A stretch of DNA of 64,000 nt, from IMG/VR virus record IMGVR_UViG_3300021373_001027, positions 1,381 through 65,380 of that record, one strand, 5' to 3'. Made by a program: the position numbers and the translations under genes. This document shows, in pieces, positions 23,648-56,700 of the stretch; positions within the stretch are counted from its first letter, which is position 1; every line of letters begins with the position of its first letter. The notes below the pieces were generated by a model. The model saw only the letters and a program-made list of their open reading frames with translations. It was not told the DNA's origin and ran no database searches. Origin of the DNA: a virus (taxonomy: Duplodnaviria; Caudoviricetes).

Positions 23648-24553
23648 TTAAGCTCCGGGCGAACCCCAGACAGCCAAAGGATCAGAAACACCAAACGAGT
23701 AACGCTCACGGGCCTTGTAACGGCTGTTGCCGGTATCAAAGTCGCCGTCCATTGAGGTCTGCATTGGCGTACGGACGAAGTGCTTAAGTCCGTTCGGAAT
23801 GTCAGTCATCAAGAACCATGCGTTCGTATCCGTCAGGTAATGGTTAATTGCATAACCTTCTGGAATAGAACCGTTGCTCTTAAGAGCGTTCAGGTCGTTA
23901 TCCGCTGTTGCAACGCGGCCTTCAGTTTCCAACAAGCGAGTTGCAACGAATTGCAATGCGGGTGGAACGATAAGCTTGCGAGGACGGGCAGCAATTAACA
24001 AGCCGCGCTCATCAGTCCACTGTGAAATCTGAATGACAGCGGCTTCCAAAGAAGTCTCATTCAGGTCAGCAGCGACCGTGGGGCGGTTAGAGTTAGTGCC
24101 ACCGCTAACTAGCGGGTGAGCAGTTGAACATAAGGTAGTGCCGTCACCGTAGTTCACACCAGAGAAAGCATTGTTCAATACTGACGCAGCTTTAACTTGC
24201 TTGGTGTAAGCCATTGCGCGAGCCAGTGCCTTGGTGTAGCGAGCGGAGAGGGAATCATAAAGATTATCTTCCATCGCTTCTTCAGTAATACTGAAGCCCA
24301 TTGCAACTGTTTCGTGCACGTAACGAGCAGTCCATGCTTCTTGAGCATTATCATACTCAATCGCAGAACCTTCGTCTTTAACGGGAGCGGCGGAGAAACC
24401 GGACAACTTGGTTTCTTCTTCAAATGAACGATCTGAAGATTCAGTCTCGAACATCTGCTTATGCTCTTCTTCATACTTAGAATACTCCATACCAAAAAGA
24501 GCGTTTAGCCCCGGCAAGAGTTCCTTTAGTAGTTGTGCGCGTGAAATAGCCAT
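23648..24553 (-). CDS. Major capsid protein (Mu-like gpT type, HK97 fold)
   Basis: MAISRAQLLKELLPGLNALFG...KLIVPP...YKARERYSFGVSDP; followed by strong terminator. Confidence 0.88.
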   Translation of the reverse strand: MAISRAQLLKELLPGLNALFGMEYSKYEEEHKQMFETESSDRSFEEETKLSGFSAAPVKDEGSAIEYDNAQEAWTARYVHETVAMGFSITEEAMEDNLYDSLSARYTKALARAMAYTKQVKAASVLNNAFSGVNYGDGTTLCSTAHPLVSGGTNSNRPTVAADLNETSLEAAVIQISQWTDERGLLIAARPRKLIVPPALQFVATRLLETEGRVATADNDLNALKSNGSIPEGYAINHYLTDTNAWFLMTDIPNGLKHFVRTPMQTSMDGDFDTGNSRYKARERYSFGVSDPLAVWGSPGA

Positions 24554-27229: not shown

Positions 27230-29672
27230 TATTATTTCCTAGTAGTCCCTGTACCTGTTGGAGACGAAGCCTTGCTCGTTCAAATTCTTCCTCGGAAGCC
27301 AAGGAACGTTGCTCCATTTGATACTTAAGTGCCATTTCTTCCTGTTCAAGCTCAAGTCGTTGTTGCTCAGTAATAGACTTGACCTGATCATTTGTTTCTT
27401 TACGCTGCTGTTCCCGCAACTTAAGTGCCTGATTGTCTTGCTGAGTCTTTTCTTTCAACATCTGCTCACGATCCTTACGAGCCGCGTCTTGTTGTTGAAG
27501 TTGAATGAGCGGGTCTTGCTGCTTAGCTTGGTTTTGCTGAGCCTGCATTTCCTGTTTCTTCTGCTCGGTTATCTGCATAGAGGCATCTGCCAACAGACGA
27601 GAAAGCTGAAGTTCGATTTCTTCAGGCATTTCCTCATCAGGCGGCGGTAACTCAACGCCCATCTTAGCTTCAATCTCAGCCCTGTACTTAAACGCTACGT
27701 GTTCAGTAATGTGCGCTTGCAACGACGACATAATTTGCGGCGTCATTGGGTTTTGACCAATAGCTTGCATGATTTGAGGGTTCTGCATCATGCTTGTATG
27801 GGTGGCGATATGGGCATCGTGATCTTGGTAAACAAACGCTTTGATGGGTTTACCTACCATAGCTGCCATATTCTCACTTACAGGGTCTTTGGGTATGTGA
27901 TCCTCTGTAAGCGGTATGATCTTGTCAGCGTTTTTAATGCCAATCACATCAACCATCTGTCGGTGAAGCTGAGGCAGGTCATAGATTTGCGGAGCGGATT
28001 GCGCCATTTGCATAACAGCTTGATATTGAACAACTTTTTGAGCCATTGTCGCGCTGTTTGGATCACTAACAGGGATCACATCTACCGTAAGGTAGTCAGA
28101 CTTACGTGCTTTCTGCTCACCGGTACTCGGTAAAAAGTCATAGTTGTCTTGCGATCTGTCAGCGATCAAGTCCTTGATCAGCCTGAACTCCTGCTTCATG
28201 GCGTAGTGGACGCGAGACTGAACAGCGGTCATCGGCTTAAGCGTTCGCTCAAGCAGCGCCAGCGTTGTGCCAACCGGTGCGTTTGCTGACATATCAGAAA
28301 TATCTATATCTGAAATAGCGCCAAGCCTTCGACCTTCATTGGTAATCTTGTCCAGCAAAGCCAGCAATGTCTGACTAGGCTCTTTGTAGGGGAGAGGCAT
28401 TAAGTTCTCCCTAAGACTTCCAGAGGTAACATCAACGTCTTTCCACTCGCCGGGGGCAATTGGAGTGTCATCGCCGCGCACCCTCAAGTCTCGGGTTTTT
28501 AGACCCCCCGGCAAGTTAGCTAGTGTACCCGCGTCTACTAGCTGTCGGATTAGACTGGTTCCAGCACGAGCATATCCCCCGATTATGTGGATCAGACCTA
28601 ACCCATAAAAACCAAAACCTTGAGAGTAGACGTAATGGACAAAGTGCTGTCTGCGCTTATAAAGCGTGTCACCTTCTTCCCAGTTACGATAGATAGAAAG
28701 AATCTCATTACTGCTAGTGTCTATGGTAACGATGTAGGGCTTAACTTGATTGTCGTCAGCGTCTATATCATCAAACGCTAAATCAACGTGCACCTCAAAC
28801 AGCGTGTGCCGCCCATCCTCATTAATACTAAACCCGTCTGCTTCCGCCTTCTTCTCATCTATATCCGTTGTATAGGGAGCAGCATCGCCTAAATCAATGT
28901 CTCTATAGAACCCAGACTGCATTAGGCGGTCAACTTCGTTTGTCGTCTTACGCATAATGTGAGTTATACGCTCTGCGTTTTTCAGATTAGACGCACCATA
29001 AGGAACGACGATTTCTTCAGCGGGGACATACATAGCGACTTGTCGTGCGATACTATCGTCATAATAGACTTTCTTAAACGCACTGCCGCTAAGACCTAGA
29101 CTGTAGAGCATCCGTTCATGCTCACTTCGGTACTCATCCATGACCTCAGTAAGCTGATAGTTCATATCGGACTTAACACGTTCCGCAGCTTCTCTTGTGT
29201 CCTTATCTTCAATGCCGATAATTTTTGTCTTTACAGGGCCGCTCGCTGGGAACGTCTCTCCCATTGTTTCCGCTTGAAAACGAATAGCGGCCTCACTTAA
29301 GAGACTGGAGTAAACGCCACAGGCTCCATCCCAAGGTTGTCCACGTTCCTCATGTTTAATTCCTAGCAAGTCTAAACCTTCGACAAAAGTATCCGACCAT
29401 TCTTTTCGGCTAGTTATGTCAGATTCAACATCACCAACAATCTCATCACCCAGCGATTGAAGTACGTCTTCTGAAACAAATGACGCTAAATTAGCATCAA
29501 AAGGAATATTATCAGCCATCATAGTGTCAGGCATTAGCGCAATTTCCATGCCACCGTCGTCCAGAAGGATCGCGTCAGGCGTCTCAATCTCAATCTCAAT
29601 ATCTGCGTCCATCGAAGGCATTAAATCCCCCAGACCCATCGGCGCTTCGTACAAGCCTTTTTCAATAGCCAT
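27222..29672 (-). CDS. Portal protein (P22-like, long C-terminal coiled coil)
   Basis: 816 aa right after TerL; GFYGLGLIH...LVDAGTLANLP; Q/E-rich C-terminal barrel. Confidence 0.85.
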   Translation of the reverse strand: MAIEKGLYEAPMGLGDLMPSMDADIEIEIETPDAILLDDGGMEIALMPDTMMADNIPFDANLASFVSEDVLQSLGDEIVGDVESDITSRKEWSDTFVEGLDLLGIKHEERGQPWDGACGVYSSLLSEAAIRFQAETMGETFPASGPVKTKIIGIEDKDTREAAERVKSDMNYQLTEVMDEYRSEHERMLYSLGLSGSAFKKVYYDDSIARQVAMYVPAEEIVVPYGASNLKNAERITHIMRKTTNEVDRLMQSGFYRDIDLGDAAPYTTDIDEKKAEADGFSINEDGRHTLFEVHVDLAFDDIDADDNQVKPYIVTIDTSSNEILSIYRNWEEGDTLYKRRQHFVHYVYSQGFGFYGLGLIHIIGGYARAGTSLIRQLVDAGTLANLPGGLKTRDLRVRGDDTPIAPGEWKDVDVTSGSLRENLMPLPYKEPSQTLLALLDKITNEGRRLGAISDIDISDMSANAPVGTTLALLERTLKPMTAVQSRVHYAMKQEFRLIKDLIADRSQDNYDFLPSTGEQKARKSDYLTVDVIPVSDPNSATMAQKVVQYQAVMQMAQSAPQIYDLPQLHRQMVDVIGIKNADKIIPLTEDHIPKDPVSENMAAMVGKPIKAFVYQDHDAHIATHTSMMQNPQIMQAIGQNPMTPQIMSSLQAHITEHVAFKYRAEIEAKMGVELPPPDEEMPEEIELQLSRLLADASMQITEQKKQEMQAQQNQAKQQDPLIQLQQQDAARKDREQMLKEKTQQDNQALKLREQQRKETNDQVKSITEQQRLELEQEEMALKYQMEQRSLASEEEFERARLRLQQVQGLLGNNNV

Positions 29673-31222
29673 TAGTAATATCCACCCTTACGCCGTTTAA
29701 AATATTGAGTCTCTTCCGCTTCATCAGTGGGGAGGCGTATAAACCCACCTTGTCGGAAACGCATTAGAGCCATTACGGTTGAATCCACTCGGTCATCGTT
29801 TGACCCAAAAGGAAAGGCAGCGACTTCTTCAACTAGCTCATCTGCCCAACGTGTTTCAGGAACCCACACCATACCCGATGATACTATATCGCTAACAGAA
29901 TTTAACCTTGCCAGCTTGTCACCTGTGCCACGGTGGGGCGTATACTCAGAAACAGGCAACCCTGCTCTACGCATTTCTTGATAAATCGCCGTACCTGCGC
30001 TCTTTTTCTCTACGATAAAGGCGTCGGGTTCCCAGTCTTCATAGTTAGCCATACACATCTGTTTAAGCTCTGGGAACTCGTATCGCTCACAAATACTGTT
30101 TAACAGGATGATATGGTACGCATCTTCTTGATCATTAAAGAACACGCCCCACGTAGTTAACGATGTAAAGTCAGCACGGTTATGTTTTTCGGCGGCGGCG
30201 TCCAACGACATGATGACGTATTCGCAAGAGGGCGGGGACTCGGCTCGCCATCGTTTCCACCAATTACGTTTTATCAGTGCGGCTTCTTCGGCAGTGGGAT
30301 TCTGCTGATACTGGGCGTTCCACTGGAACAACGGCATACTTTCACGCGTGCGGTGTAACGCCTTTAGATCAAAGAACTCAGGCCACAGAGGAACTTCCTG
30401 CTCTTTACCCTTGCGCTTTACGTCAAGAATCGCTGGAAACTCAACAACCTCATACTGGTCAATGTCTTGATTCTTTGCCATATCCTTTGTCAGACGGCCC
30501 GTTAGGTCATCCAAGTGCCAACGTGTGTGTACGATAGCGACTCGACCTCCGGGCATAAGACGGGTTCGTGCGCCAAAACGGAACCAATCGTAGGCTTTGT
30601 CAAAAATTTCATAGTTGCCGTTTAGGATTTCTTGCTCGTTGTGCGGGTCATCGACCAGTAGGAGGTCGGCACCCCGTCCCGCCAACGCTGAACCTACACC
30701 TGTTGCGTAGAACTCACCGCCGTGGTCGGTGTTCCAACGCCCCGCTGATTTAGAATCGGACGCAAGCCCCACATCTTTAAATATCTCTCGGTAAGCATCA
30801 CTGGCTATGATGTTTCGCACCTTTCGGCCAAAGTCCACAGCAAGGTCTGCCGTGTGAGAAATCAGCATAACTTTCTTGTTGGGATTGCGACCCAAGAACC
30901 AAGCGGGGTAATAGGTCGAGGTAAGCTGTGACTTTCCGTGACGAGGGGGCATATTGATGCAAACACGATCTTTCGCACCAGACTCGGTTGCCATGAGCAT
31001 ATCGGCAAGCTTTCGGTGATGCTTACCGACAAGATAATCACTTTGCATGTGCTTACAAAACTCAATCAAATCATCCTTACAGCTTTGTACATAGTCCCTT
31101 CTCTGTAACTCATCAACCATTCGGTTGATTTCTTCTATTTCAGCCTCAGTATACTTATCGAGGTTGTTTAACATTATCTGAAGCTCTAGCTTCGTAAATG
31201 GAAGACCCTCACTCACTGTCAA
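29672..31222 (-). CDS. terL: Terminase large subunit
   Basis: Walker A MPPRHGKS, Walker B LLLVDDP, TRWH, RNase H-like nuclease (SLD, NDDRVDS). Confidence 0.92.
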   Translation of the reverse strand: MTVSEGLPFTKLELQIMLNNLDKYTEAEIEEINRMVDELQRRDYVQSCKDDLIEFCKHMQSDYLVGKHHRKLADMLMATESGAKDRVCINMPPRHGKSQLTSTYYPAWFLGRNPNKKVMLISHTADLAVDFGRKVRNIIASDAYREIFKDVGLASDSKSAGRWNTDHGGEFYATGVGSALAGRGADLLLVDDPHNEQEILNGNYEIFDKAYDWFRFGARTRLMPGGRVAIVHTRWHLDDLTGRLTKDMAKNQDIDQYEVVEFPAILDVKRKGKEQEVPLWPEFFDLKALHRTRESMPLFQWNAQYQQNPTAEEAALIKRNWWKRWRAESPPSCEYVIMSLDAAAEKHNRADFTSLTTWGVFFNDQEDAYHIILLNSICERYEFPELKQMCMANYEDWEPDAFIVEKKSAGTAIYQEMRRAGLPVSEYTPHRGTGDKLARLNSVSDIVSSGMVWVPETRWADELVEEVAAFPFGSNDDRVDSTVMALMRFRQGGFIRLPTDEAEETQYFKRRKGGYY

Positions 31223-32966: not shown

Positions 32967-32991
32967 AGCCACCTTCGGGTGGCTTTTTTTT
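32967..32991 (+). terminator. Rho-independent terminator
   Basis: AGCCACC-TTCG-GGTGGCT followed by T-run. Confidence 0.85.
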
Positions 32992-33115: not shown

Positions 33116-33162
33116 AATAACGACATGATACCAGTAGATCGTGTAGCATCGTGTAGCTGGGA

Positions 33163-33700
33163 GTTGTAGGTTGTTATCGGTGGTTGTAGGTTGTTATCGG
33201 TTTCGCTTGGTTGTTATCGGTATTGTTACCTTTTTGGGACTTCCCGATAACAAAATACCATTTATAGGAACAGCTCACTAGATCACCCTCAGTGATACTC
33301 ATTACACTTCTAAATGATTGCAGATGGTGAGTAGTAGTAGTAGTAGATTATTCTTTTTTTATTTTGTTATCGTTTTTTATTTATTAACTATTATTGGGGG
33401 ATTCGCTAGACCCCGCTGGAATGCTATCACCCCCAAGCTAACTCCCCCTCACAAGGTAATAGACCCGATAACACGATAACATCGTAACAAATCAATGAAA
33501 TCAAGCACTTACCAAAAAAAACGGTAACAATACAATAACAAACGATAACAAAACGATAACAAAGCCAAAAGGTAACAATACAATCGCCCCCGATAACAAA
33601 CCAATCACGCCCAATAACAATACCCCGCTCACCAAATAACAAAAAGGTAACAAACCAATCACGCCCAATAACAATACAATAAACAGCCAATAACTAAATA
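33163..33700. repeat. Iteron-like repeat field, candidate replication origin
   Basis: GGTTGTTATCGG x3 on the left, about 14 TAACA(A)-core units (often CGATAACAA) on the right, AT-rich core ~33345-33395, exact 30-bp duplication 33594-33623/33648-33677. Confidence 0.65.
33499..33511 (+). promoter_or_regulatory. IHF-binding consensus site
   Basis: AATCAAGCACTTA matches WATCAANNNNTTR exactly, inside the iteron field. Confidence 0.5.
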
Positions 33701-33731
33701 AACTAGGGTTGCTTTACTTGGTTGGTTTTAC

Positions 33732-33760
33732 TTGACTCTAACGTGTTTAAAGCGTATAAT
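33732..33760 (+). promoter_or_regulatory. Sigma70-type early promoter
   Basis: TTGACT-17bp-TATAAT. Confidence 0.85.
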
Positions 33761-33766
33761 GGCTAT

Positions 33767-34250
33767 TCAATGGTAGTAATTTGTGTTTGGACGCGTTGCT
33801 ACCTATGCCGCACGACCCGCTTTGGTTGTGCTGTATGTTGACTGTTATAGAGCTAGCGATAGGGAGTGCGAAGTTATACACCACGTATAACTTTGGTCTG
33901 AAAGCCGTTGCAACCATACATCTTGTGGTCATGCGCGATCCTATCCACCGCCGGTCAGTCAGCCTACAGTTCCAACCGCTGCGGAGACGCACCCAACAAT
34001 CCAAACTAGCCAGTGAATACCGCGACGGGTACTGGCGAACCACGCAGCGAAAGCATATACATCTATCAAGTGTATATGTGAGTTGCGCGTGGAGTGGCTA
34101 TTCGATGAACCCTCCCGAATCCTCTGCACCACCGATCCCTCCGAGTCAGTATCCAATGAGCCTCGCGCCATGCAGCAATGCTGGCGAAAAATACCTGTCC
34201 ACGGTTTCTCAATACCGTGTTGATAAAGCCATAGCAGAAACAGGTTAACA
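33767..34250 (+). ncRNA. Candidate large structured RNA or 5' leader (~480 nt)
   Basis: About 10 stems with G-U pairs and GNRA loops directly after the promoter; no credible RBS-led ORF. Confidence 0.55.
33871..33893. promoter_or_regulatory. Dispersed palindrome, copy 3
   Basis: AAGTTATAC-ACCAC-GTATAACTT, inside the structured RNA. Confidence 0.75.
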
Positions 34251-34266
34251 ATAACGGAGACTTACC

Positions 34267-34491
34267 ATGAATCGACTACGCAAATCCTCGTACCACTACA
34301 GTAACTATTCCCTCCGCACTACGGAGTCTATTCCCAGTGCACCGGTTACACCGTTCAACCCCGAGGCCGAAGGTCGGGTAACAACCCAGACCTACACCGG
34401 CTCACTGGTCAAGGGCATCGCAACGATGCACAAGTCTAACCTGATCCCTGTCACTTCGGGCATCGGGACTAATCCTAAAATCACAAGCTAA
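34267..34491 (+). CDS. Conserved phage hypothetical protein
   Basis: YTGSLVKGIATMHKSNLIPV motif, recalled from T4-like phage hypotheticals; RBS GGAGA. Confidence 0.7.
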   Translation: MNRLRKSSYHYSNYSLRTTESIPSAPVTPFNPEAEGRVTTQTYTGSLVKGIATMHKSNLIPVTSGIGTNPKITS

Positions 34492-34511
34492 GTTATACAC
34501 CGTGTATAACT
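34491..34511. promoter_or_regulatory. Dispersed palindrome, copy 4
   Basis: AGTTATAC-ACCGT-GTATAACT overlapping a TAA stop, just before RBS AAGGAG. Confidence 0.78.
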
Positions 34512-34525
34512 ATTAAGGAGAAAAA

Positions 34526-34873
34526 ATGGGAACAAGAAAAAGAAACATAGCCAACGCGATGTTATCAAGGCCATCGCAGATCGCCACTATTGTTAACAAC
34601 CTGCCTTGTCCACCCGATGCGATCATCGCGCAATCCCGAGACAACATGACAGTGCTAAAAGCTGTGATGCTCTGGGAGTTGTACGATGATTGGTCGTACG
34701 AGTTAGCGTTAAATAACTACGAGCGTCGTTCTCGGCATTACGTTAACGCGGCGTCTGTACTTAGTGACTGGTTAAAGAGTGAGTACAACATCAGACCGCT
34801 TGATGTGTTAATGCCCAACCCTGCACCAATAAACAACCCATTCAAAAAAATCTTTGGAGAAAACCATGACTGA
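34526..34873 (+). CDS. Hypothetical protein
   Basis: Strong RBS TAAGGAG; 115 aa. Confidence 0.65.
   Translation: MGTRKRNIANAMLSRPSQIATIVNNLPCPPDAIIAQSRDNMTVLKAVMLWELYDDWSYELALNNYERRSRHYVNAASVLSDWLKSEYNIRPLDVLMPNPAPINNPFKKIFGENHD
34849..34869 (+). repeat. 21-bp exact repeat spanning RBS and ATG (second copy 36001-36021)
   Basis: AATCTTTGGAGAAAACCATGA precedes both the DUF3150-like and AAA genes. Confidence 0.9.
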
Positions 34874-35768
34874 ACTAAACTTTAACACCCCCGATATTCA
34901 AACGGACGTATCCCTTGCCACTAGCGCGTGCCTTGTAAGCTGGAACGTATCGGCGTGGTCGGGCCGTAAGAAAGACACCAAGGCAGCGGGTAGCCTATCA
35001 ATGGCAACCGGCGCAACCACCAAATCTGTGTCTGTACATAAAAAGCTGATCAGCCTACCTGAGTTTGAAGCCATCAGTAAGCACGTTGGCTGGGTACGCA
35101 ATAACTTTCACTACACTAAGACCTTACCTTGGTCTGATACAGGCTTGCGGTTACTCGCCACCGAGGAGTTGTTCGACTACAAGCCACAAATGGAGGAACA
35201 CGCGCAGGAGTTCGATAGGCTTGTTCGTGAGTTCTTTTCAGTATACCTAGACGCGATCAACCGAGGTCGTAACGAGTTAGGTACGCTGTTTGACGAGACG
35301 CAGTACCCTACGCTGGACGAGCTTGCTAGTAAGTTCTCATGGCGTACGACGTTTATCCCTGTACCTACGAGTAATGACTTCCGCATTGATGTATCCCAAG
35401 TGCAGAAAGATAGCTTGGCGAGTGAGTACGAGGACTTCTATCAAGCTGAGATGAAGCGTGCAATGGATACCGTGTGGGTAGACTTGCATACGTCACTGGT
35501 AGAGCTAAGCCAGAAGCTTGACTTTGAAGCGGCTGGTAAGAAAAACAAGTTGTTTGCATCACGGCTGGATACCATACGCCAGCTAACCCGATTGCTGGGG
35601 TCATGTAACTTTACCAACGATCCCAAAATGTCTGCTATGCAGCGCAAACTGGCATCAGCGTTTGACGGCTTGACGGTGGAGCAGCTTCGCCACAGTGATT
35701 CATTGCGTGTCGAGACTAAAGCTGAGCTTGACGATGCTATCCGACAGCTTCCTAGTTTGGACTTCTAA
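34866..35768 (+). CDS. DUF3150-like protein
   Basis: SAWSGRKKD...TLPW...YP...KF pattern; upstream of AAA+VWA pair; start re-called at ATG after GGAGA. Confidence 0.55.
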   Translation: MTELNFNTPDIQTDVSLATSACLVSWNVSAWSGRKKDTKAAGSLSMATGATTKSVSVHKKLISLPEFEAISKHVGWVRNNFHYTKTLPWSDTGLRLLATEELFDYKPQMEEHAQEFDRLVREFFSVYLDAINRGRNELGTLFDETQYPTLDELASKFSWRTTFIPVPTSNDFRIDVSQVQKDSLASEYEDFYQAEMKRAMDTVWVDLHTSLVELSQKLDFEAAGKKNKLFASRLDTIRQLTRLLGSCNFTNDPKMSAMQRKLASAFDGLTVEQLRHSDSLRVETKAELDDAIRQLPSLDF

Positions 35769-35788
35769 AGTTATACATCGGTATAACT
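35769..35788. promoter_or_regulatory. Dispersed palindrome, copy 5
   Basis: AGTTATAC-ATCG-GTATAACT immediately after a stop codon. Confidence 0.75.
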
Positions 35789-35795
35789 ATCTAAT

Positions 35796-36002
35796 ATGAA
35801 GTATTACGTTGAAGCATATTACGAGGATGGTGGTCAAATCCTCGGTAATCTGGACGGGCAAGCGGTGCTTAGGTGCCGCAACCCCCGTCGAACCAAGCAC
35901 TACCGTCATTTACAAGACGTTATTGCTCAAGGCAAGCACCCCAAAGTTTCGTACTACCGTATCGTAGACGAACATAACCGACTGTTTGAAACCATCATAT
36001 AA
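35796..36002 (+). CDS. Hypothetical protein
   Basis: 68 aa ORF filling the gap between palindrome and 21-bp repeat. Confidence 0.55.
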   Translation: MKYYVEAYYEDGGQILGNLDGQAVLRCRNPRRTKHYRHLQDVIAQGKHPKVSYYRIVDEHNRLFETII

Positions 36003-36017
36003 TCTTTGGAGAAAACC

Positions 36018-37106
36018 ATGAATGCATTAAAAACTTACGCTGTAAATTTTGAAGAAGCGGTGTCTGCTATCGTGAACCTTGGCGATGAGGTGACATACGT
36101 GTTTGAGGGTGATATGGGTATTGGCAAATCAGCCATGCTCAAAATGGTGGCCGAGGCACTGCCTAACCACGTACCCTGCTACTTCGATTGCAACACCAAA
36201 GACGTAGCCGATGCCTTTGTACCTGACATTTCTTCAGCGCAGACTGAGAATGTGGTACGTATGGTGCCTAACGCAGAGTTCGGTATTCAACACGGTAAAC
36301 CTGTTATCCTGATGATAGACGAGGTGGGTAAAGCCGAAGGTGCTTTGCTTAAAGCGTTGTTCGCAACGTTCCACGAGCGTAGCATTGGCATGACCCCGTT
36401 ACCCAAAGGCTCTATCGTCTTTGCAACAACCAATCTGGGAGCCGAGAATTTGGGTGACCTGATCCCTCCGCATGGCTTAGACCGTGTAACTAAAGTACGA
36501 CTCCGAAAGCCGACCCCTACTGAATGGATGGAGTGGGGCTTTAACAATGACATTCACCCTACCGTTCTGGCGTGGGTAAAAGACAATCCTCAGTTATTTA
36601 ATTCCTTCGACGATGTATCTTCCCCTGAAGATAATCACTACATCTACCACCCCAACGTTGTACGTGACGGGTTTGTAACTCCGCGTGGTCTGGAACGTGC
36701 ATCCAAGATCATTCACAAGATGGACTTGATTGGTGAGACTATGACACGTAGCTCTCTGATCGGTACGCTAGGTTCTCATGGTGCTGGTGATCTTATGGCG
36801 TTTGTGACATTGTTCAATCAAATCCCCTCGCATGATGCAATACTGTCTAGTCCAACTACGGCTATCGTACCTACTGATGCAGCGGCGGCTTGTATGGTGG
36901 TGGCGCGTGCACTTGTTAAGCTTGAAGCTAAGGACGTTTCTAAGTGGATGGAATACCTAGTACGTTTGGACAAAGGTGCACAAGTATTGTTTGGTCTACA
37001 AGCTAAGGCCAAAACCTACAAGCGTCAGAAAGCCGTTGTCAGTAACGGTGCGTTCAACAAGTGGGCGTTGGACAATAGTTATATCTTCAGTGCTGACAAG
37101 CAATAG
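36018..37106 (+). CDS. AAA+ ATPase (MoxR/dynein-related type)
   Basis: Walker A GDMGIGKS, Walker B ILMIDE, FATTN, TPRGLE. Confidence 0.85.
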   Translation: MNALKTYAVNFEEAVSAIVNLGDEVTYVFEGDMGIGKSAMLKMVAEALPNHVPCYFDCNTKDVADAFVPDISSAQTENVVRMVPNAEFGIQHGKPVILMIDEVGKAEGALLKALFATFHERSIGMTPLPKGSIVFATTNLGAENLGDLIPPHGLDRVTKVRLRKPTPTEWMEWGFNNDIHPTVLAWVKDNPQLFNSFDDVSSPEDNHYIYHPNVVRDGFVTPRGLERASKIIHKMDLIGETMTRSSLIGTLGSHGAGDLMAFVTLFNQIPSHDAILSSPTTAIVPTDAAAACMVVARALVKLEAKDVSKWMEYLVRLDKGAQVLFGLQAKAKTYKRQKAVVSNGAFNKWALDNSYIFSADKQ

Positions 37107-37124: not shown

Positions 37125-37129
37125 TTATG

Positions 37130-37158
37130 GGGTGACAGTTTTTGTCACCCTTTTTTTT
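37130..37158 (+). terminator. Rho-independent terminator between AAA and VWA genes
   Basis: GGGTGACA-GTTTT-TGTCACCC followed by T8. Confidence 0.75.
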
Positions 37159-38465: not shown

Positions 38466-38689
38466 AACAACCTATTGTTAAAAAACTACCTACCCACAAA
38501 AAAGTAAAGTACATGATTGATAACCCCGAGCTTGCAGGAGTATTATTAGATCATTGGGCAGGTAGCAGCACCAAGCACTTTACTGTTAAGGACGCTAAGA
38601 GGTTCGGCAAAGACGTACGTTCGTCTCCGCTTACTATGGGGGAATGGATGGACATTGAGTGGGAGGGTATGGCTGATGACAAAAGCTGA
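38462..38689 (+). CDS. Hypothetical protein
   Basis: ATGA overlap with upstream gene. Confidence 0.55.
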   Translation: MKQPIVKKLPTHKKVKYMIDNPELAGVLLDHWAGSSTKHFTVKDAKRFGKDVRSSPLTMGEWMDIEWEGMADDKS

Positions 38690-47552: not shown

Positions 47553-47601
47553 CCTGACCCCCGCCCCTGCTATGTGAGCGGGGGCATATTTGGAGACACA
47601 C

Positions 47602-50439
47602 ATGATCGCTTTAGATTTCTTTAAGGCGGTGCTGGGGGACTCTGGTTGGTATTGCGCGTTTAGTAAAGACCCAATAGTGCAAAAGTTCTATACAACAATA
47701 GAAGAACTTGACCACGTAACTAAACAGTTTAGCCAGAACAACAAAGATTCCTACTTCGCACTAGCTACATTTAAAAACGGGGACTCAAGGGAAAGCATCA
47801 ATGCCCTACAGATTAAGTCTTTCTTTGTAGACATTGACGCAGACCACGGAGCCATACGCTACGATAATAAACAGGAGGCCGTTTCAGAGTTAAGAGGTTT
47901 CTGTAAAGCTTTTGCTTTACCCAAGCCTGTCATTGTAGATTCGGGTGGAGGGATTCACGCTTATTGGATTCTTGATGAGCCTGTCTCAATGGACGAGTGG
48001 AAGCCGGTAGCTCTCAGCTTTCGGCAAGCTTGTATTGATCACGGTCTACGCATTGATCCTAAAGTCACAGGTGACGGCGGCAGGGTGTTAAGGACACCCA
48101 ATACGTATAACACTAGGTCAGATACGTATAGCAAGTTTTTAAGTGACACTGTTAACTACATACCCTTTTCCCTGTTTGCTGATAAGTTCGATACAGCGCC
48201 CGCGCCGGTACTGGTATCAAACAACATTGACCAAGCAGACAGCGCTTTGCTTAACTTACTGCAAAGTAACGTACAGGGTAGCTTCACCAAAATAGAAGAA
48301 AAGAACGAAGCCGGTGAAGGTTGTGCACAGCTAGACTACATACTCAAGCACCAAGACGAAGTTAGCGAACCGCTTTGGCGTGCAGGGTTGTCTATTGTAA
48401 AGTTTTGTGACGAGTACGATGAGGTAATGCATCGTATGTCAGAAAATCACCCTGAGTATGATGCGGGTGAAACTGAGTACAAGTTATCAAGAATCAAAGG
48501 CCCGTACAGGTGTAGCTCTTTTGAAGAAGAACGCCCTGAAGGTTGCGAAGGTTGTCCCCATAAAGGGCAGATAAACACCCCTTGGTCGCTGGGCATGAAG
48601 ATAGCTGAAGCCGAGGGCGAGGAAGTTGTCTCTGATTTGTTTGACGACCAAATAAGCTATGTGATTCCTGAGTACCCTAAACCCTACTTTAGAGGATTGA
48701 ACGGTGGCATATATATCCGTTCACAAACTCTAGCCGACGACGAGCCTGAAGAACGTTTGGTTTACCATAATGACTTATATGTAACCCGAAGAATACGTGA
48801 CCCAGAACTAGGCGAGTCTATTATTGTTACCTTAATTTTACCCCAAGATGGTAAAAAAGAGTTTGTATTACCGTTGACCGCTGCAACGTCACGCGAAGAA
48901 TTTAGAAAAGCTATGTCCCATCACGGCGTAGTTATGATGAAAATGGAAAACCTTATGGCCTATATACAGAAGTGGGTGGAGGAACTGCAATTGAAAAGCA
49001 AAGCTGATGAATCTAGGCGACAGTTTGGTTGGACTAAGAATTTAGAAGGTTTTGTAGTCGGGGCCGAAGAAATTACCAAAGACGAGATACTGATAAACCA
49101 CCCTTCGCCACCCACAGCTAGATTCTTTCCAGCGTTTGAACCTAAAGGCTCTTACGAGGACTGGCAAGTGATGATCGAAACTTACAATCGCCCTGATCTT
49201 GATGTGCACCAATTCTGTTTAGCCTTCTGTCTAGGATCGCCTCTGTTTGAGTTTATACCGAAGATTCAAGGCGGCGGTGTCCATTTGTTCAGTGGTGATA
49301 GCGGGTTTGGCAAAACGTCTGTCATGGACGCAGGGAACTCTATTTGGGGTGGCCCTAGCTTGCGAATTAAGGGCAAGGATACAGGCAACTTTACAATGAA
49401 CAGAGCAGAGATATGGAAAAACCTACCTTTGCTGATAGATGAAGTAGGAGATGTACCACCTCACGAACTAAGCGCACTCGCTATGGTTATGACGGACGGT
49501 GAGCAGAAAGGTCGAATGTCTAGCGGGGCCAATCAAGAGCGCATTAGGGGTGAGCCTTGGTCGCTAGGTGTAATGACCAACGGTAACAATAGCTTTATTG
49601 AACGTGTTTCTACCTTTAAGAACGTACCGCGTGCTGAAGCGCAGAGGATTCTAGAGTGGGAATGCGACGGTGTTAACTTCAATAAAAATGCTGAAGGGGG
49701 AGAAGAATCGGACAGGTTCAACGACCTTCTTGAGAAGAACTACGGGTGGGCTGGCCCGATATTCATTAGATATATATTAAGTAACAAGGAAGAAGTACAG
49801 AAACTTGTTACCAAGACGAGTCAAGTGCTTAACAAAAAGCTAAGGTTGGCAGTGCAAAATAGGGTTTGGAAAGCCAACCTAACCGTTGCAATTGCTGCGA
49901 ATATCATAGCTAACCGCCTTGGCATCTGGACATTCGATACCAATTTAATGCTGGCTACGAGTGCCAAAATCGTTAAGTATAATCGTGAAAAAGTGGTGAC
50001 AATTACCCGCAATGCAACAGAAACGTTGAACGAGTATGTGGCAGAGAATATACGTAATATATATATCATTAACAGCAAGAAGGATTTACGTAAGCAAGGC
50101 ATTCACAACAACGCATTGGACAGCTTGGTAAAGACCGTTGACCCTTACAAAGTGGTAGGTCGGCTAGAGCCTGATACTGAAATGCTGTACTTAGCCGTTA
50201 GTCCTCTACGCAAATGGTGCTTGGATCAAAGAGTGAATTACTCTGAGTTAGATCGTGACCTGTGCCGAAACCATAACGCCTATAGAAAGAACAAGCGCCT
50301 ATTGGCGGGACACAATCTTGACACCGGCCCAGTAAAAGCTCTATGGGTTAACGTTAAGGATATTCTAGACTTGGAAGATGAAGATGCACTACGTGAACTG
50401 GAAAAAATAGCAAGCCTAACAGAAGATGAAAACGATTAA
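47602..50439 (+). CDS. Primase-helicase (RepB/AEP-like primase, Cys cluster, DUF927-like ATPase)
   Basis: VDID, SGGGIHAYW, RVLR.P, CxxCPH, Walker A GDSGFGKT, LLIDE; start re-called at ATG after GGAGA. Confidence 0.8.
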   Translation: MIALDFFKAVLGDSGWYCAFSKDPIVQKFYTTIEELDHVTKQFSQNNKDSYFALATFKNGDSRESINALQIKSFFVDIDADHGAIRYDNKQEAVSELRGFCKAFALPKPVIVDSGGGIHAYWILDEPVSMDEWKPVALSFRQACIDHGLRIDPKVTGDGGRVLRTPNTYNTRSDTYSKFLSDTVNYIPFSLFADKFDTAPAPVLVSNNIDQADSALLNLLQSNVQGSFTKIEEKNEAGEGCAQLDYILKHQDEVSEPLWRAGLSIVKFCDEYDEVMHRMSENHPEYDAGETEYKLSRIKGPYRCSSFEEERPEGCEGCPHKGQINTPWSLGMKIAEAEGEEVVSDLFDDQISYVIPEYPKPYFRGLNGGIYIRSQTLADDEPEERLVYHNDLYVTRRIRDPELGESIIVTLILPQDGKKEFVLPLTAATSREEFRKAMSHHGVVMMKMENLMAYIQKWVEELQLKSKADESRRQFGWTKNLEGFVVGAEEITKDEILINHPSPPTARFFPAFEPKGSYEDWQVMIETYNRPDLDVHQFCLAFCLGSPLFEFIPKIQGGGVHLFSGDSGFGKTSVMDAGNSIWGGPSLRIKGKDTGNFTMNRAEIWKNLPLLIDEVGDVPPHELSALAMVMTDGEQKGRMSSGANQERIRGEPWSLGVMTNGNNSFIERVSTFKNVPRAEAQRILEWECDGVNFNKNAEGGEESDRFNDLLEKNYGWAGPIFIRYILSNKEEVQKLVTKTSQVLNKKLRLAVQNRVWKANLTVAIAANIIANRLGIWTFDTNLMLATSAKIVKYNREKVVTITRNATETLNEYVAENIRNIYIINSKKDLRKQGIHNNALDSLVKTVDPYKVVGRLEPDTEMLYLAVSPLRKWCLDQRVNYSELDRDLCRNHNAYRKNKRLLAGHNLDTGPVKALWVNVKDILDLEDEDALRELEKIASLTEDEND

Positions 50440-50643: not shown

Positions 50644-50715
50644 ACCGCTTTTGTCATGGGGAGCGGTTATTCATGGTAGTCTCCTTACTTTGCCCCCTAC
50701 TTAGGGGGCTTTTTT
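50644..50715 (+). ncRNA. Candidate trans-acting small RNA antisense to early-gene translation starts
   Basis: Promoter, 5' hairpin, core TATTCATGGTAGTCTCCTTA, terminator; core complementary to 34252-34272, 36008-36023, 34856-34869, 37165-37182. Confidence 0.6.
50692..50715 (+). terminator. Rho-independent terminator at the convergence of the two arms
   Basis: GCCCCCTA-CT-TAGGGGGC followed by T6. Confidence 0.8.
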
Positions 50716-53700
50716 ATAGCTCCAAGGCTGACTTAGCAAGTTCCGCTTCAGTTTTGTCCCTGTATCGTATACCCATAACTCTATCTTCAACGGCCTTCAT
50801 TCTAGCTCTAAATGATCGGTCAAAGGTTCCGTTTTCGCCAAGCTTAATTGCAAACTTAGAGTTTGCTGGTAACGACTTGTTAAACTCTACAGCTTCCTTA
50901 AGCTCATCGGCGTAACCTGCACCGTCACCAACGCGGTACGCAAGCCAAGCTCTCTTTAAGATCAATGATCTTCGTTCTGCTCGGTTACCTTCTATGTACT
51001 TCTGGTTAGATATAAACCTCTGAGACTCTGTGACTTCTGTAGGTGCAAAGCCAATAACTTGCCCGAACAACGATAGCACTCCGAAATCATCGGTGATCAT
51101 ATCCCCGCTAGTGGTTTTAGCTCCATCCGATCTGTACCTGTTAGCTTTAAGCGCGTTGCTAATTGCAGGGGGCAATATAGCTTCCCACATTCTTCCCCAA
51201 TCACCTCTCTGATAAGAACTGTAGCCTCTTGGAATACGCGATACGGTTCCCCATACAGGGCCAAGCGCTAAGGTAGCGTACAGTTCGGCGGGTGTTTGAT
51301 CGTAGTTACGGTTGCTGCGGTAGAGCATATCCGTAAGTGCAATCCTGTCGGCAACGTTTACACCCAAAAGACTATTCACAACACCAGACGATGCACCAAT
51401 GCCAATTCGCTTACGTAGCATGTTATCAAAATCGTCTTCTTCACCATCACTTAAAAACAAATTGTAAAGAGCAGCAAAAATACCCATCAGCGGGATGCCT
51501 CTTACTCCCGCAAACGCAGCCGATGCGAGGTAGACGTTAAATATCTGATCCCTCGCTGCCTTCCTAATCTCAGGGGTTTCTCCCGCTAGCATATCCTTTG
51601 CCATCTTAAACTGTAGATACATCATGCGTGAGCCATAGCTCTTATACATAAAGGCCATTGACATTAGCGGTTTTTGCCCAAAGCGCGTGTTAGACAAGGT
51701 GGACATTGCACCGTTCACCATCTGACTATCACTAATGGCATCTAGCGCGGCCTTCTCGTAATCTATCTTATCTCCCGCCTTCCTTTGATCCTCCAACCTA
51801 AACCTATAGCTGGCTAGAATCGTAGCTTCCCTTCGCACTCGTTCACTGCTTGACATGAGTGAACCCATTAAGTTGTTCAAAACAGACATGAATCTGTTTT
51901 CACCTGTCATTTCGCCGCTGTCTGATCTAAGTGCAAGTTGGTGAACTTGGCCGTATTGTCGCATGGCCTCAACAAGCGGTCTTAGTTCTCGCGAGTTTTT
52001 ATCGTTACCGCTTAAGTCCATATTAACCAGCGAATACCACGCCCCTATCTTACGCGTATCTCTTTCTCCAAGACCTTTTTCTTTAATCTCTTTGTCGCTA
52101 AGCCCTTTAGTGGTGTAGCTTTCCACCGAGGTCTTAAACGGCGTACTCATAACGTCTTTTACAGCTTTTAAAACGGCCTTATTGGTTTCCACAATGCCTC
52201 TGTCAAACTTAGAATTAAGATGCGGGGCAATAACCATCGGTAACGCAAAGGTATCAATAAGCGCTGAAGATACGTTCAAGCCCAGAGTCCAACCATACGC
52301 CGCTGTCTTAGCATAGTTAGCCATGTCCGTTACGGTTCCCGTAATAGGGTTACGTGCTAGTGCTATTCTCTTTTTCAGTTCTTCGCCTATGATTAGCTTT
52401 CTTTCGTTTTCTGCACTGTTGTTATCCGATGCAATAATCTTCATTTCAGCATCAAGCTCAGCTTCAGTTCTAGAAAGCTCATCCCTCATCTTCATGCTGT
52501 TTATCTTTCTTGCAAGATCAGTCAACGAAGACTCATAGACCTTAACAACATCATTGTTGTATCCAGCTTTACCTGTACGTTTCTTTAACGCATTCAATAC
52601 AGTTCTTTGCGGAGCGGCTTCGATAGCTGTTCGTATAAGTTCTTCTTTGATTGCCTCAGTTTCAGGTGTATCGCCTAACCTGTTAATAAGCTGTAAACTT
52701 TTACCCACAAAGCTGTAAGGTATTCTATCGCCAGTCAGGTAGTCCGTTAGCTTTGTGGGTGTTCTGATAAGGTCAACCTGTGCTGGTTCTAGCAGGTTTT
52801 CTTTAAGAAACTCTACACGCGCATCCCGTTCGGTTGAGCTAGTGAACATCTCAAACGCATCTCTCGTCTTGCCGTCTGCGTCAGTAAAAGTGAAAGACAG
52901 AAGATAATCACCTCTACGCTGCAAAGGGAAGTATCCTTCAAGCGCGTTGTTCTTAAAGTGTTCGTACAATTCGCTGTATATCTTACTACCCGTCTCAGGG
53001 TCAATCGCCCCCAATGCCACCTCTAACTGCTTAAGCAGGTCTTGATACATGCGGTCATAGTTAGACCTAACCTTATTGTATTCAAGCTGCCCTCCGTTGT
53101 CCTTCAAGCGATTCCATACAGGTTCTAGCTTTTCGTATGCCGCTTTCTGTTCACCTCTGTACTCATTCTTAGCTTTTCTAAAGTCAATCTGAGCCAAAGT
53201 GCCGTCCAGTAAAACCTGCTTTAAATCGCTTAAAGCTTCAGTGTTTTGCTTTCCCCACACTTGCAAGTCTTTTGCAGCAGTTTCCGCAATTGCTTGCTGA
53301 TCGCCATACAACCGACCTTCGTACTCACTGATTGTCGTAAGTATGCGATCAGCCGACTTAAAGCTATCCTTAGCTGTATCAACGACTAAAGATAACTGTA
53401 AAGAACCTAGCATGGGGCCGAGGCTTGCATTGCTAAGCCTTCTAAGTGCACTCATCCCAACGGCTTTTGTTGTTGAGCCTCCATCGAACAACCCAAGCAC
53501 TTTATTGTTGTCAGTGAGCAAGTTATAAACTTTACCAGTAGCAGCGGTGGCGCTGGGAGCAAGCAACTGTTCCATTGTATCGTTAAGGTCACGACGCGTT
53601 GCTACGTTTCCAAACAAACGTTTTATTGCGTCTGTCAAGCGTTGAAACATACTTTGTCGTTGCTTATCACTAGGTAGCATGAAGCTGAGTTCCCTGCGAA

Positions 53701-56700
53701 AATCAGGGTTGCCAAAGTACTCCGCGACAAATTCATGTATACTTGATGTTGCGTAACTAGCAGGAAGTTTAGACTTAGCTTGCTCGTATAGCTTTGCTAT
53801 TTTTCTAGCAGCAGGGTTTGATTTGTTGTTAATTTGTTTATGAGTTAAAGCGTGAGCAATTTCGTGTAATACAGAATGGTTGGTTACCGACTCACCTTCA
53901 AGTATGTATACCGTATTATTGCTAATCCGATACTGACCTTTAACTAAAACACCCTCTACGTCACCCAAGTCTTTAACAAACTCAACTTTTAGGTCACCTA
54001 CTAATTCAGAAAACAACTTAGCAATACGTGAAAGTGACCCAGTTTCCCGGCGAGATATTATGTTTAAGGCTTCTTGCACATCACCACTTCTGAGTGCAGC
54101 GGCAGCGGCACTGTCCATAGGTGCTGCTACGTCTAGCAAACCTTCTTCAGCAAGCATATTAAAATCAGACTCAGATAAACCGAATGCGGCTAGGTCGCTC
54201 TCGGCATCGCTCAATGCGCCGGTTTCTTCAGCGGTAGAGTCTACGGCATCGTCAATTATTTGCTGCTGTTTCTTGGCGGCTTGGCGTTCCCTTCGACTTT
54301 CTTGAGCTTCCTCAGACTCGCTCTTGCGTTGTCTTTCTTCAGCTTGGCGCTGTTCCATTGCTTTTCTGGCAGCGACCCGATCATCAAAAGCTTGGCGTTG
54401 TTCAGCTTGACCTTTGTTGGCTTCTATTAATACATCAACTTCTTTTTGCGCTTTACTTAAAGCTTTCTTTTGAGCAGCAGTGCCTTTGTTTTCTATGAAC
54501 TTAACAGCAAGTTTAGCGCGTTGCCTGCTCGTCCCCTCTAGTTCTTTACGAACACGGGGGCTACCTTCTTCTGAGATTCTGTTAGCTGTTTCGTTGCTAG
54601 TGTACCCAAGCTCAGACGCGTCAAAAGCCAGCCGTCTAGCAGCGTCGTCAGGTTTGAACTTACCAAAGTAAGTCTTAATGACATTTACATCTTTGACGGA
54701 GCCTTTCTTGCTTGTTTGTACTTGCTTAACGTCCTTGATTTTTTTGTCGGCTACAACAGCAGCGACCTTATCTTCAGGATCGACGGGTTTTTTAACTTCG
54801 ACTTTAGGCTTGGGCGCTAGTGTATCAGGCTTAGTTCTTTTTCTGCTTCTAGTATCTGGTACGTTACCCCCAGTACTTGCCACGCTAGGCTGTCTAACGT
54901 CTCCAGCGACGGGGGTAGGTCGTTTTGCAGTAGGTAAAGGTCGCCTTGGCTGCTTGCTTCTGACGCCTCCGCTAGTACTTTTAGCGCTAGTTCCATCTGT
55001 TCCTGTGTCAAATTTAACAGCGGGTTCGACATTAGCGGGTTCCGTTACTTTTTTTTTACTCGCAGGGGTTTTTGCAGCAAGTGCTTTCGCTGCATCTACA
55101 GCCGCTTTTTTGTTGGGTATCGCCCTGCCTCTTTTATCGACGCCAAACAATCCAACATTAGAACCAAAGCCACTTTTATCATCAAAGAACTTTGTCATTA
55201 AGAACTTAGTTCTGTTGTTACCGTTCTTGTTCGCAAAGGTTTGAAGTTCTCTTTTTACCAAAGCCTTGTCTTGTGGGTTGTTTAAATCTTTACCCTTAAC
55301 TCTGGCCCGCACTGGTGCGTTCTTGGGAATGTCAAATGAATTTAACAACTGGTCGTTTACTACAACCGGTTTTGCTAGGGGTGTAGCTTCGGCCTTAGCT
55401 TGAGGTACAACGGGAGGTTTAGCTTTTGCTCCACGAAACTTATCTTGAACTCTACCCAACGGCTGACCCTTAGCACCCAACATGCGACCTTGCACTGGGG
55501 CTGGGGTTTGATCGGTGGTAACGTCAAGTTCACCTTGAATTGTTTGCGTAGGCAGCTTTGTCTGTGGCTCTGCTTTCGGCGTAGCTTTAGCTTCTTGAAG
55601 GTCGCGAGGAAATAAATCCCGTTGACCGTCTGAGTCTGCAAGAATCTCTCGCAATGCGCGATCAATTTGCTCATCGGTCATGTTCTCTATAAGAAGGTCA
55701 TCGTCTGCATTAATATCTAAGCCGCTGAGAGTAGGCTTTGCTTCTTCTTCGCTACGGGCTTTTTGTATTCGCTCATTAACGTTGGCGTTAATAGCTCGGT
55801 CACGTTCTGAAGGCTGCGGAAGGGCAAGCTGTCCTGTAGGCTCCCTTACATTTTCTATCTCGGCAAGAGCGGCGTCTAAGATAGAATCATCAACGGGACG
55901 CTGAGGCATGTTCATTTGAGATGGCTTGCGGCTTCTAGGTTCTTCTAACGATAAAGAATCTAGTCTGTCTAGTAGACTATCAAGATCGTCAACCTCAACG
56001 GGACGCTGAGGCATGTCCATTTGAGTAGGTCTAGCTCGCCTTGCGTCTATAGAGGGCACACCCATATCCGTAGGGTCAAAAGCCGATGGCTGTAAAGGCG
56101 CATCGGTAGAAATATCGGACGCTTCTAACAACTCCGATTCTATATCAGGGGCATCTTCAGACGATGCGGCACTTCCTCGCCGTGGAACTAATGCACCTAC
56201 GATAGCACCGACAGCCGCGCCAATACCGCCCGACTCTAAAACGTTATCCATCAGCGATTCTAATTCAGGATTGTAAATCTTGCGCTCGGTTACGTTTTGC
56301 AGGTACTCGTAAACAGCTTCTTGTGCGCCTTCGTAGGAACCGCTCTTGGCAGCGTCAACTACCTTACCCTTAATGCCGTTAGGTAATGCCTGTGCAAGCT
56401 TAAATATTCTTTGGATAGGAAGGGCTTGTGTGGCACCGATTGCAGTACCGGACAGTGCAGCTTGGCTTCGTTGTTCCTCTGTAGCACCAGCGGCTCTAGC
56501 TCTCTCAGATGCATCTCCTGCACCAGCAGCCGAACCTAATCCTGCCCCCGCCACCACACCCGCTACAGGGCCACCCACAAGACCGGCAGCTAGATAGGGG
56601 CCGATTGAACCTAGACCTTCAACGACTTTAGTTAAAGTGTCATCTTCAAGTCCCGGCTCTCGCTCTGGCCTTAGAGTTTCTGCTGAACTCTTAATAAAAT

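Follow-up and report, generated by a model that had tools for sequence, protein, structure and literature searches.

The stretch of DNA analysed here, referred to below as the window, comprises 64,000 nucleotides (bases 1381-65380) of the 65,380-bp IMG/VR record IMGVR_UViG_3300021373_001027, an uncultured tailed phage whose record carries direct terminal repeats. Genes for terminase, portal, capsid and tail fibres occupy the minus strand in the left part of the window, and an early/replication block runs along the plus strand from 32.3 to 50.4 kb. The products of the early block include a DUF3150 protein, a MoxR-type ATPase, a vWA/DUF2201 protein, a family-B-like DNA polymerase, an SNF2 helicase and a DUF927 primase-helicase (gene at 47590-50439). 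Within this block, downstream of orf208 and ahead of a group of five genes recognised from the list of open reading frames (ORFs) and from family matches (orf74, orf115, the DUF3150 gene, orf68 and the MoxR-type ATPase gene; 34267-37106, +), lies the subject of this report, a region of about 480 nt (33767-34245, +). Its folding statistics and its conservation in a related phage mark it as a probable structured non-coding RNA that would form the leader of the early operon.

The region stands directly behind a sigma70-type promoter (33732-33760, +) in which TTGACT (33732-33737) and TATAAT (33755-33760) are separated by 17 nt. This is the only site on either strand of the 64-kb window to match the sigma70 consensus at 11 of 12 positions, all others scoring 10/12 or less, and the original prediction was right to call it the best-matching promoter. 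No phage RNA polymerase was recognised among the gene products of the window, and host-type promoters should therefore matter to this phage. The sole relative found to carry the RNA, the IMG/VR phage IMGVR_UViG_3300046167_000553 (loci L003, L004 and L005), has DUF3150 and ATPase proteins that are 94% and 97% identical to those of the window, and its promoter sequence is unchanged (L004, 2471-2499). Judging from the promoter spacing, transcription would start at about 33766-33767.

Upstream of the RNA, orf208 ends in a strong terminator (32967-32984). A scan for terminator-like sites revealed none at the 3' end of the RNA; the sole such site inside it is the hairpin at 33810-33831, which is rated weak, and no strong site lies between 33838 and 37129. 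The next strong intrinsic terminator (37129-37151, +) lies behind the MoxR-type ATPase gene and 25 nt ahead of the vWA/DUF2201 gene, and is kept in the relative (L004, 6125-6147) with changes in its upper stem and loop. Since the RNA has no terminator of its own and the next one follows the ATPase gene, the region is best described as the 5' leader of a five-gene unit. For the same reason a small RNA cassette running from promoter to terminator, of the DicF or PeSL type, was considered and rejected. There is no strong promoter ahead of the vWA/DUF2201 gene in the window (the best scores 9/12) or in L004, so that continuation of the operon into this gene would need read-through of the terminator.

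A 155-aa ORF (33781-34248) spans almost the whole region. In a MAFFT alignment with the relative, six insertions or deletions fall within the RNA (+1, +1, +1, -1, -8 and -17 in L003), none of them a multiple of three, and the frame is thereby reduced to 82 aa; it matches no PHROG family. The 155-aa ORF is not a gene, and because these frame-shifting changes break it, the region is regarded as non-coding. Codon-level conservation of this frame, the observation that the original prediction had set against itself, was not found. A shorter Cys-rich ORF of 23 codons, near the beginning of the RNA, was also set aside: a +1 insertion in L003 alters its C-terminus.

The region is nevertheless well conserved as nucleotides. 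Identity between the two phages is 88.7% across the RNA, compared with 74.8% for orf74, 69.5% for orf115 and 72.1% for orf208; the corresponding values are 80.8% for the repeat region upstream, 87.7% for the DUF3150 gene and 90.7% for the ATPase gene. Of 452 aligned positions of the RNA, 51 differ (11.3%); among 295 four-fold degenerate sites counted in the DUF3150 and ATPase genes the number is 87 (29.5%), which makes the divergence of the RNA 2.6-fold lower (Fisher p = 7e-10). A decaying spacer or pseudogene would be expected to diverge near the latter value, and the comparison therefore indicates that the stretch is under selection at the nucleotide level. This bears on one alternative, namely that the region has no function of its own and is a decayed gene or spacer whose structure and conservation stem from recent ancestry and chance, or else that the 155-aa ORF is a real gene after all. 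Such a view can draw on the facts that only two sequences are available, that the fold ranks unremarkably across the genome and that the covariation statistics are modest. It has to contend with the low divergence, with conservation better than that of three flanking ORFs, and with the pattern of changes described below, in which every altered pair is kept and every insertion or deletion falls in a loop; its coding version faces a frameshifted ORF without a PHROG family. We consider it very improbable.

When folded as RNA, 33767-34250 reaches -162.9 kcal/mol vs -138.3 +/- 5.6 kcal/mol in 100 dinucleotide shuffles (z -4.36), and none of the 100 shuffles folds as well, which is the outcome that the original prediction had anticipated for this check. 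The reverse complement gives z +0.11. Divided into four sub-domains, the plus strand yields z values of -5.25, -3.57, -3.70 and -1.56, and the minus strand -0.7 to -0.8 for the same sub-domains; the best-folding of the four, at -5.25, is the pair of hairpins at the 5' end (P1 and P2). A signal confined to the plus strand fits the many G-U pairs; of the 128 consensus pairs, 14 are G-U in the window and 21 in L003. The assignment to a plus-strand RNA in the original prediction, made from G-U pairs and loop types, is thus borne out.

Conservation of pairing was examined with the same two sequences. RNAalifold returned 135 pairs, of which five show changes on both sides and 13 on one side, with none broken. 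After the variable 3' arm of a long-range helix had been re-anchored on a common 9-mer, the refined consensus contained 128 pairs: 112 unchanged, ten with one-sided and six with double changes, and again none broken. The long-range helix 33832-33844/33956-33968 accounts for four of the six double changes; the others are located in the 34053-34079 stem and the 34172-34181 hairpin. Columns with insertions or deletions are unpaired without exception, the 8-nt and 17-nt deletions included, and substitutions affect 22 of 256 paired vs 32 of 196 unpaired positions in the refined consensus. In 150 column shuffles of the MAFFT alignment, the consensus energy corresponds to z -6.6 on the plus strand and -3.1 on the minus strand; at least five compensatory pairs on the plus strand were reached in only 4/150 shuffles, compared with 79/150 for the two found on the minus strand. 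Taken with the broken frame, the strand-specific fold, the constraint and the absence of an Rfam match at E<=10, the kept pairs agree with the original prediction of an unrecognised phage non-coding RNA, and we put the probability that this is a real conserved structured RNA element at roughly 85%.

Several observations weigh against this reading. In a scan of 1060 windows of 480 nt, with energy corrected for composition by regression, the best of those overlapping the RNA comes only about 15th (z about -2.4), and several coding windows of this genome fold harder than the RNA stretch; because of this rank, folding energy alone is supportive and not decisive. The sum of one-sided and two-sided changes is reached in 14/150 column shuffles and is not unusual, and covariation support is thin because the carriers of the RNA are two sequences about 89% alike. 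Tested blind on L003, the minimum free energy (MFE) fold of the window alone has 12 of its 143 pairs broken, nearly all of them in one long-range extension, so that details of the fold are uncertain. This extension, pairing 33813-33835 with 33965-33989, is dropped by the consensus and was rejected. The core helices may be taken as supported, and the global fold as provisional. Transcription of the RNA, its 5' and 3' ends and all of its action are inferred from sequence; among the sequencing runs listed as carrying the stretch, a part of it or variants (20 rows from 13 studies of seawater, marine, oyster, mollusc and coral-reef metagenomes), none is of RNA. As a separate observation, the most stable composition-corrected 480-nt fold of the window lies elsewhere, at 24001-24480 (-, z -3.99), within the major capsid gene region and in the sense orientation.

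Every helix listed in the original prediction is present in the sequence at the position given for it, including the first two hairpins, read there as 33772-33803 and 33805-33837. The RNA opens about 6 nt from its predicted 5' end with the P1 hairpin (33772-33803, +; 9 + 3 bp), which is invariant between the two phages, followed by the 8-bp P2 hairpin (33810-33831, +), where the relative has a C-G to U-G change at 33813/33828 and a 1-nt insertion in the loop. A long-range helix then closes a multi-branch domain. Its 5' arm (33832-33844, +), with four double changes in L003, pairs in the consensus fold with the 3' arm (33956-33968, +), and its core can be read directly in the sequence as GTTGACTG (33837-33844, +) against CAGTCAGC (33956-33963). 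Enclosed by it are the GATAGG/CCTATC pairing, the palindrome at 33873-33891 and the ACCATA/TGTGGT hairpin. The first belongs to an inner helix whose 5' arm (GCT.GC GATAGGG; 33852-33864, +) pairs with 33939-33955 and shows three one-sided, pair-keeping changes, at 33854, 33857 and 33859. The palindromic hairpin (33871-33893, +) is a copy of an intergenic repeat; its stem is longer in L003, where one A and one T have been inserted on opposite sides. The ACCATA/TGTGGT hairpin (33913-33929, +) carries two A-U to G-U changes in L003. One of these recurs as 33918 A>G, the sole listed change in the parts of the RNA covered by short contigs from four sequencing runs (X19, X17, X15 and X11, out of 24 listed), where it comes from X15.

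Beyond the multi-branch domain, a small hairpin with the sequence TGCG-GAGA-CGCA (33980-33991, +) undergoes a G-C to G-U change and loses its GNRA loop in L003. It is followed by a conserved C/A-rich linker (33992-34008, +) that is unpaired in the consensus, has more C than G and shows a mean unpaired probability of 0.66 in the window and 0.61 in L003. Next come a GCCAG...CTGGC hairpin with an inner ACC/GGT helix (34009-34036, +; from the consensus fold) and a long irregular hairpin of 6 + 4 + 8 bp (34040-34092, +), whose loop contains the 8-nt deletion of L003 and whose stem shows U-A to C-G at 34056/34076 and C-G to U-G at 34040/34092. The 3' domain (34094-34232, +) is closed by GTGGCT/AGCCAT (34094-34099/34227-34232), with a G-U to G-C change at 34094/34232, and comprises three hairpins and a variable C-rich loop (34115-34131) that is deleted in L003. 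In the hairpin CGCCA-GCA-GCAA-TGC-TGGCG (about 34166-34186, +) an A-U pair is replaced by G-C at 34174/34179 and the loop, with GTAA in place of GCAA, is still of the GNRA type, while the hairpin TGTC CACGGT ... ACCGTG..GATA (34196-34225, +) is invariant between the two phages. The CACGGT/ACCGTG pairing is flanked by ACCTGT (34192-34197) and ACAGGT (34240-34245), and a short A-rich tail leads to the 3' end at 34245. Repeats of two internal motifs of the RNA are not in excess.

At this 3' end the similarity to L003 stops, at ...GAAACAGG (34245), and an inserted ORF follows. The extra ORF encodes 79 aa (L003, 3121-3360), has no Pfam family and lies exactly at the RNA boundary; its Shine-Dalgarno sequence consists of the final RNA bases ACAGG plus AG. 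Further along in L003 (about 3613-3690), the start of the orf115 homologue is duplicated, and a 16-nt piece of the RNA (window about 34146-34161) lies between the copies, just upstream of the ribosome site of the homologue; the window has no copy there. Among the small proteins of this region (orf208, orf74, orf115, orf68 and the extra ORF of L003), none has a Pfam family below E 0.07 or a PDB match below E 0.19. The sole PHROG match of orf74 is 27048 (function unknown), and a 22-residue stretch of it is found in the Acidovorax phage ACP17. Elsewhere in the window, a 2084-aa protein (50714-56968, -) without a Pfam family matches, in its C-terminal part, a PHROG annotated as DarB-like antirestriction (E 8e-36).

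Searches for known families were negative throughout. Rfam 15 (4227 models, among them riboswitches, ribozymes, RNase P, 6S, tmRNA, ROOL, GOLLD and group I/II introns) gave no matches at gathering scores in the whole window and none at E<=10 in 33650-34350. ARAGORN detected no tRNA or tmRNA gene in the window, and the impression that the RNA is not a tRNA, tmRNA or RNase P is thereby upheld. With a boxA consensus and up to three mismatches, no match is present on the RNA strand of 33767-34245, the sole match there being on the minus strand; the 91 boxA-like matches in the whole window are at chance level (83 expected). A blastn search of 33400-34600 against 50,697 phage records returned no match, and nhmmer with the RNA against 164 loci recovered only its own record and the L003 contig.

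Covariance models were built from the 3' 212 nt (R1) and the 5' 203 nt (R2) of the RNA. Over 160 DUF3150 loci they gave no credible match: the best score was 11.7 bits (E 0.85), and there were matches to the palindrome only. These loci were the best 80 of 577 and the best 80 of 555 confirmed stretches from marine viral and metagenome contigs, and their DUF3150 proteins are 35-41% identical to that of the window, L003 apart. Exact seeds in IMG/VR led to one locus for a 21-mer and to 9, 15 and 8 loci for 16-mers, of which only the L003 contig passed R1/R2, and a 20-mer seed had no match in genome contigs. R2 found nothing in T7 (1-1500) or, at E<=10, in the HK022 genome (1-40751). A full-text literature search, which is no proof that the RNA is unpublished, turned up no account of it among the papers listed. 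The RNA thus appears, on these comparisons, to be lineage-restricted and without a known family. A DUF3150 protein with 66% identity (P0002, 65 contigs, all from Logan) marks an intermediate relative. The DUF3150-bearing loci L006-L164 reside on marine viral or metagenome contigs of about 58-70 kb, and their abundance points to a large, little-studied group of marine phages. Judged by DNA polymerase, the closest isolated phages are siphoviruses that infect Proteobacteria (46-48% identity), which suggests marine Proteobacteria as hosts.

The surroundings of the RNA are rich in repeats. The hairpin repeat AGTTATAC-N3-5-GTATAACT, about 19-23 nt long, occurs eight times in the window (32286, 33095, 33873, 34492, 35770, 37106, 38901 and 44292), always within the plus-strand early block and in seven of the eight cases between genes, as a rule directly following a stop codon or shortly ahead of a ribosome site. 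Seven copies are present in 11 kb of L004, alike in their arms and different in their loops. The varying length of the spacer suggests an RNA or DNA hairpin serving in punctuation, processing or stabilisation, as opposed to an operator for a dimeric protein. Upstream of the promoter, two inverted arrays of GATAACAA / GGTAACAA-type repeats (33157-33235 and 33460-33700) lie on either side of an AT-rich core (about 33350-33382). The whole window contains 11 exact GATAACAA copies, compared with 2.6 expected, and nine of them cluster within 33171-33599. These arrays beside the early promoter could be an origin or a field for regulator binding. A function as DNA or in replication has to be weighed for the conserved feature as well, with the promoter and transcript serving the adjacent iteron-rich region 33157-33700 as an origin activator or primer, or with the helices acting as operator or cruciform sites. 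The inverted GATAACAA-type arrays and AT-rich core directly upstream would suit such a role, as would the palindrome within the RNA, which is one of the repeated elements. Double-stranded DNA sites do not fit, however, because the structural signal is one-stranded and relies on G-U pairs; moreover, transcription is directed away from the iterons and the RNA region, at about 0.5 G+C, is not rich in AT. A role of this kind appears highly improbable.

If the RNA is a leader, the question is what it acts upon. A switch governing the translation of a single gene is unlikely, given that L003 has another gene, the 79-aa ORF, immediately behind the RNA. Predicted unpaired probabilities give a mixed picture of whether the leader occludes the ribosome site and cannot be read either way. 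Since the RNA goes with the promoter and the adjacent gene changes, a leader acting in cis on the whole operon is favoured, tentatively and at somewhat less than even odds. Host sigma70 RNA polymerase would make the RNA from the strongest promoter of the phage, as the first ~480 nt of an early operon transcript that would continue through orf74, orf115, the DUF3150 gene, orf68, the MoxR ATPase gene, the terminator and the vWA gene. The 5'-proximal pair of hairpins and the compact multi-domain fold would keep RNases and Rho away from the long untranslated 5' end, and the leader may also modify the transcribing polymerase, allowing passage of the intergenic hairpins and of the 37129-37151 terminator. 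Two points tell against this mechanism: the terminator could be read through partially without any special device, and the large 3' two-thirds of the RNA have no evident connection with control of polymerase or RNases.

A more specific version of control at the polymerase is provided by the put RNAs of phage HK022. These act in cis, suppressing pausing and termination through the beta' zinc-binding domain of RNA polymerase, with no protein factor. In layout the present locus is similar to HK022 putL and putR, since two adjacent stem-loops follow a host-type early promoter and a terminator lies further down the operon. According to PMC9378689, put RNAs measure about 70 nt and form two stem-loops, and putL is found immediately behind PL. 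The original prediction had proposed a put-like antitermination leader. In the strict form of this reading, P1 and P2 would bind their own polymerase and confer resistance to terminators as in HK022. The size and position of the hairpins stand in its favour (P1-P2, 33772-33837, forms 66 nt with two stem-loops, starting at about +6 from a sigma70 early promoter), as do their rank as the best-folding domain and the conserved terminator inside the operon. However, the present RNA is about seven times longer, shows no detectable resemblance to HK022 in its sequence or its fold (a search of that whole genome with R2 was negative at E<=10) and occurs as a single copy, there being no second one behind the other early promoter at 38517. 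About 66 of its ~480 nt are accounted for in this way, leaving about 410 nt of conserved structure unexplained, and a single substitution in P1-P2 between the two phages means that pairing there has barely been tested. Rfam has no match in HK022 27600-30100 and thus evidently lacks a put model. A put-type RNA in the strict sense is regarded as quite improbable.

The main rival to a cis-acting leader is a stand-alone, stable non-coding RNA that would be cut from the operon transcript, for example at 34040-34092 or at the 3' boundary. As the first product of infection and the most abundant one, it would then act in trans, either by capturing or decoying a protein of the host or one of its defence factors, or through base pairing with RNAs of the phage or the host, in the manner of the leader-derived c4 RNA of P1 and CI RNA of P4. 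A multi-domain fold with conserved single-stranded linkers exceeds the needs of a protective leader, and the conserved block ends sharply at ...GAAACAGG with a different gene behind it, so that the RNA behaves as a module. The 16-nt piece ahead of the ribosome site of the L003 orf115 homologue could be a pairing target, but this repeated motif is missing at that place in the window, where complementarity to the RNA is limited to 10-13-mers at chance level and to copies of the palindrome. The 3' end carries no terminator or recognisable processing signal; ARAGORN detects no tRNA-like part for RNase P to act upon, and Rfam no known small RNA family. On balance a trans-acting RNA is rather unlikely.

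Several other phage RNAs offer partial parallels. The non-coding RNAs c4 of P1 and CI of P4 also head their operons, upstream of the genes that they govern. They are about 70-80 nt long, are released by RNase P from tRNA-like folds and have clear complementary targets downstream; neither such folds nor such targets were found here (ARAGORN; complementarity scan of the window). The leader of T7 contains an RNase III site. As in T7, a strong early promoter for the host polymerase is followed by roughly 430-480 nt free of genes before the first early ORF (in T7, promoter A1 at 498 and gene 0.3 at 925; NC_001604 annotation), and hairpins punctuate the early polycistronic RNA. The T7 leader differs in containing further promoters, whereas the present one has no further strong promoter and forms one integrated multi-domain fold. 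Leaders of the boxA/nut type (rrn or lambda) are set apart by their boxA motif, which has no counterpart on this RNA strand. ROOL and GOLLD are likewise phage-borne RNAs of several hundred nucleotides, with multiple domains and without an assigned function; the present RNA differs in having no Rfam 15 match, in not being near tRNAs and in being a leader rather than a separate gene.

Few large, intricate RNAs without a family are known from bacteria and phages, and such RNAs have often proved to be ribozymes or protein-free machines. From two sequences, the RNA described here is a promising candidate for a large phage RNA of a new kind, and its placement is telling: it lies behind the best host-type promoter of a virulent-looking marine phage and ahead of its early genes. 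It may even represent a so far unrecognised class of large phage RNAs, about 480 nt in length, that would be the first product of infection and would work as RNA only. Such an RNA would be a processive antiterminator riding on the polymerase and of much greater complexity than put, or else a decoy for a host factor such as an RNase, Rho or a defence protein that safeguards the expression of early genes; this is an unlikely possibility. If the leader does control elongation or RNA survival across the entire early operon, it would be a second, unrelated case of RNA-only control of the host polymerase after HK022 put, and would add to the emerging view of phage early leaders as RNA genes.

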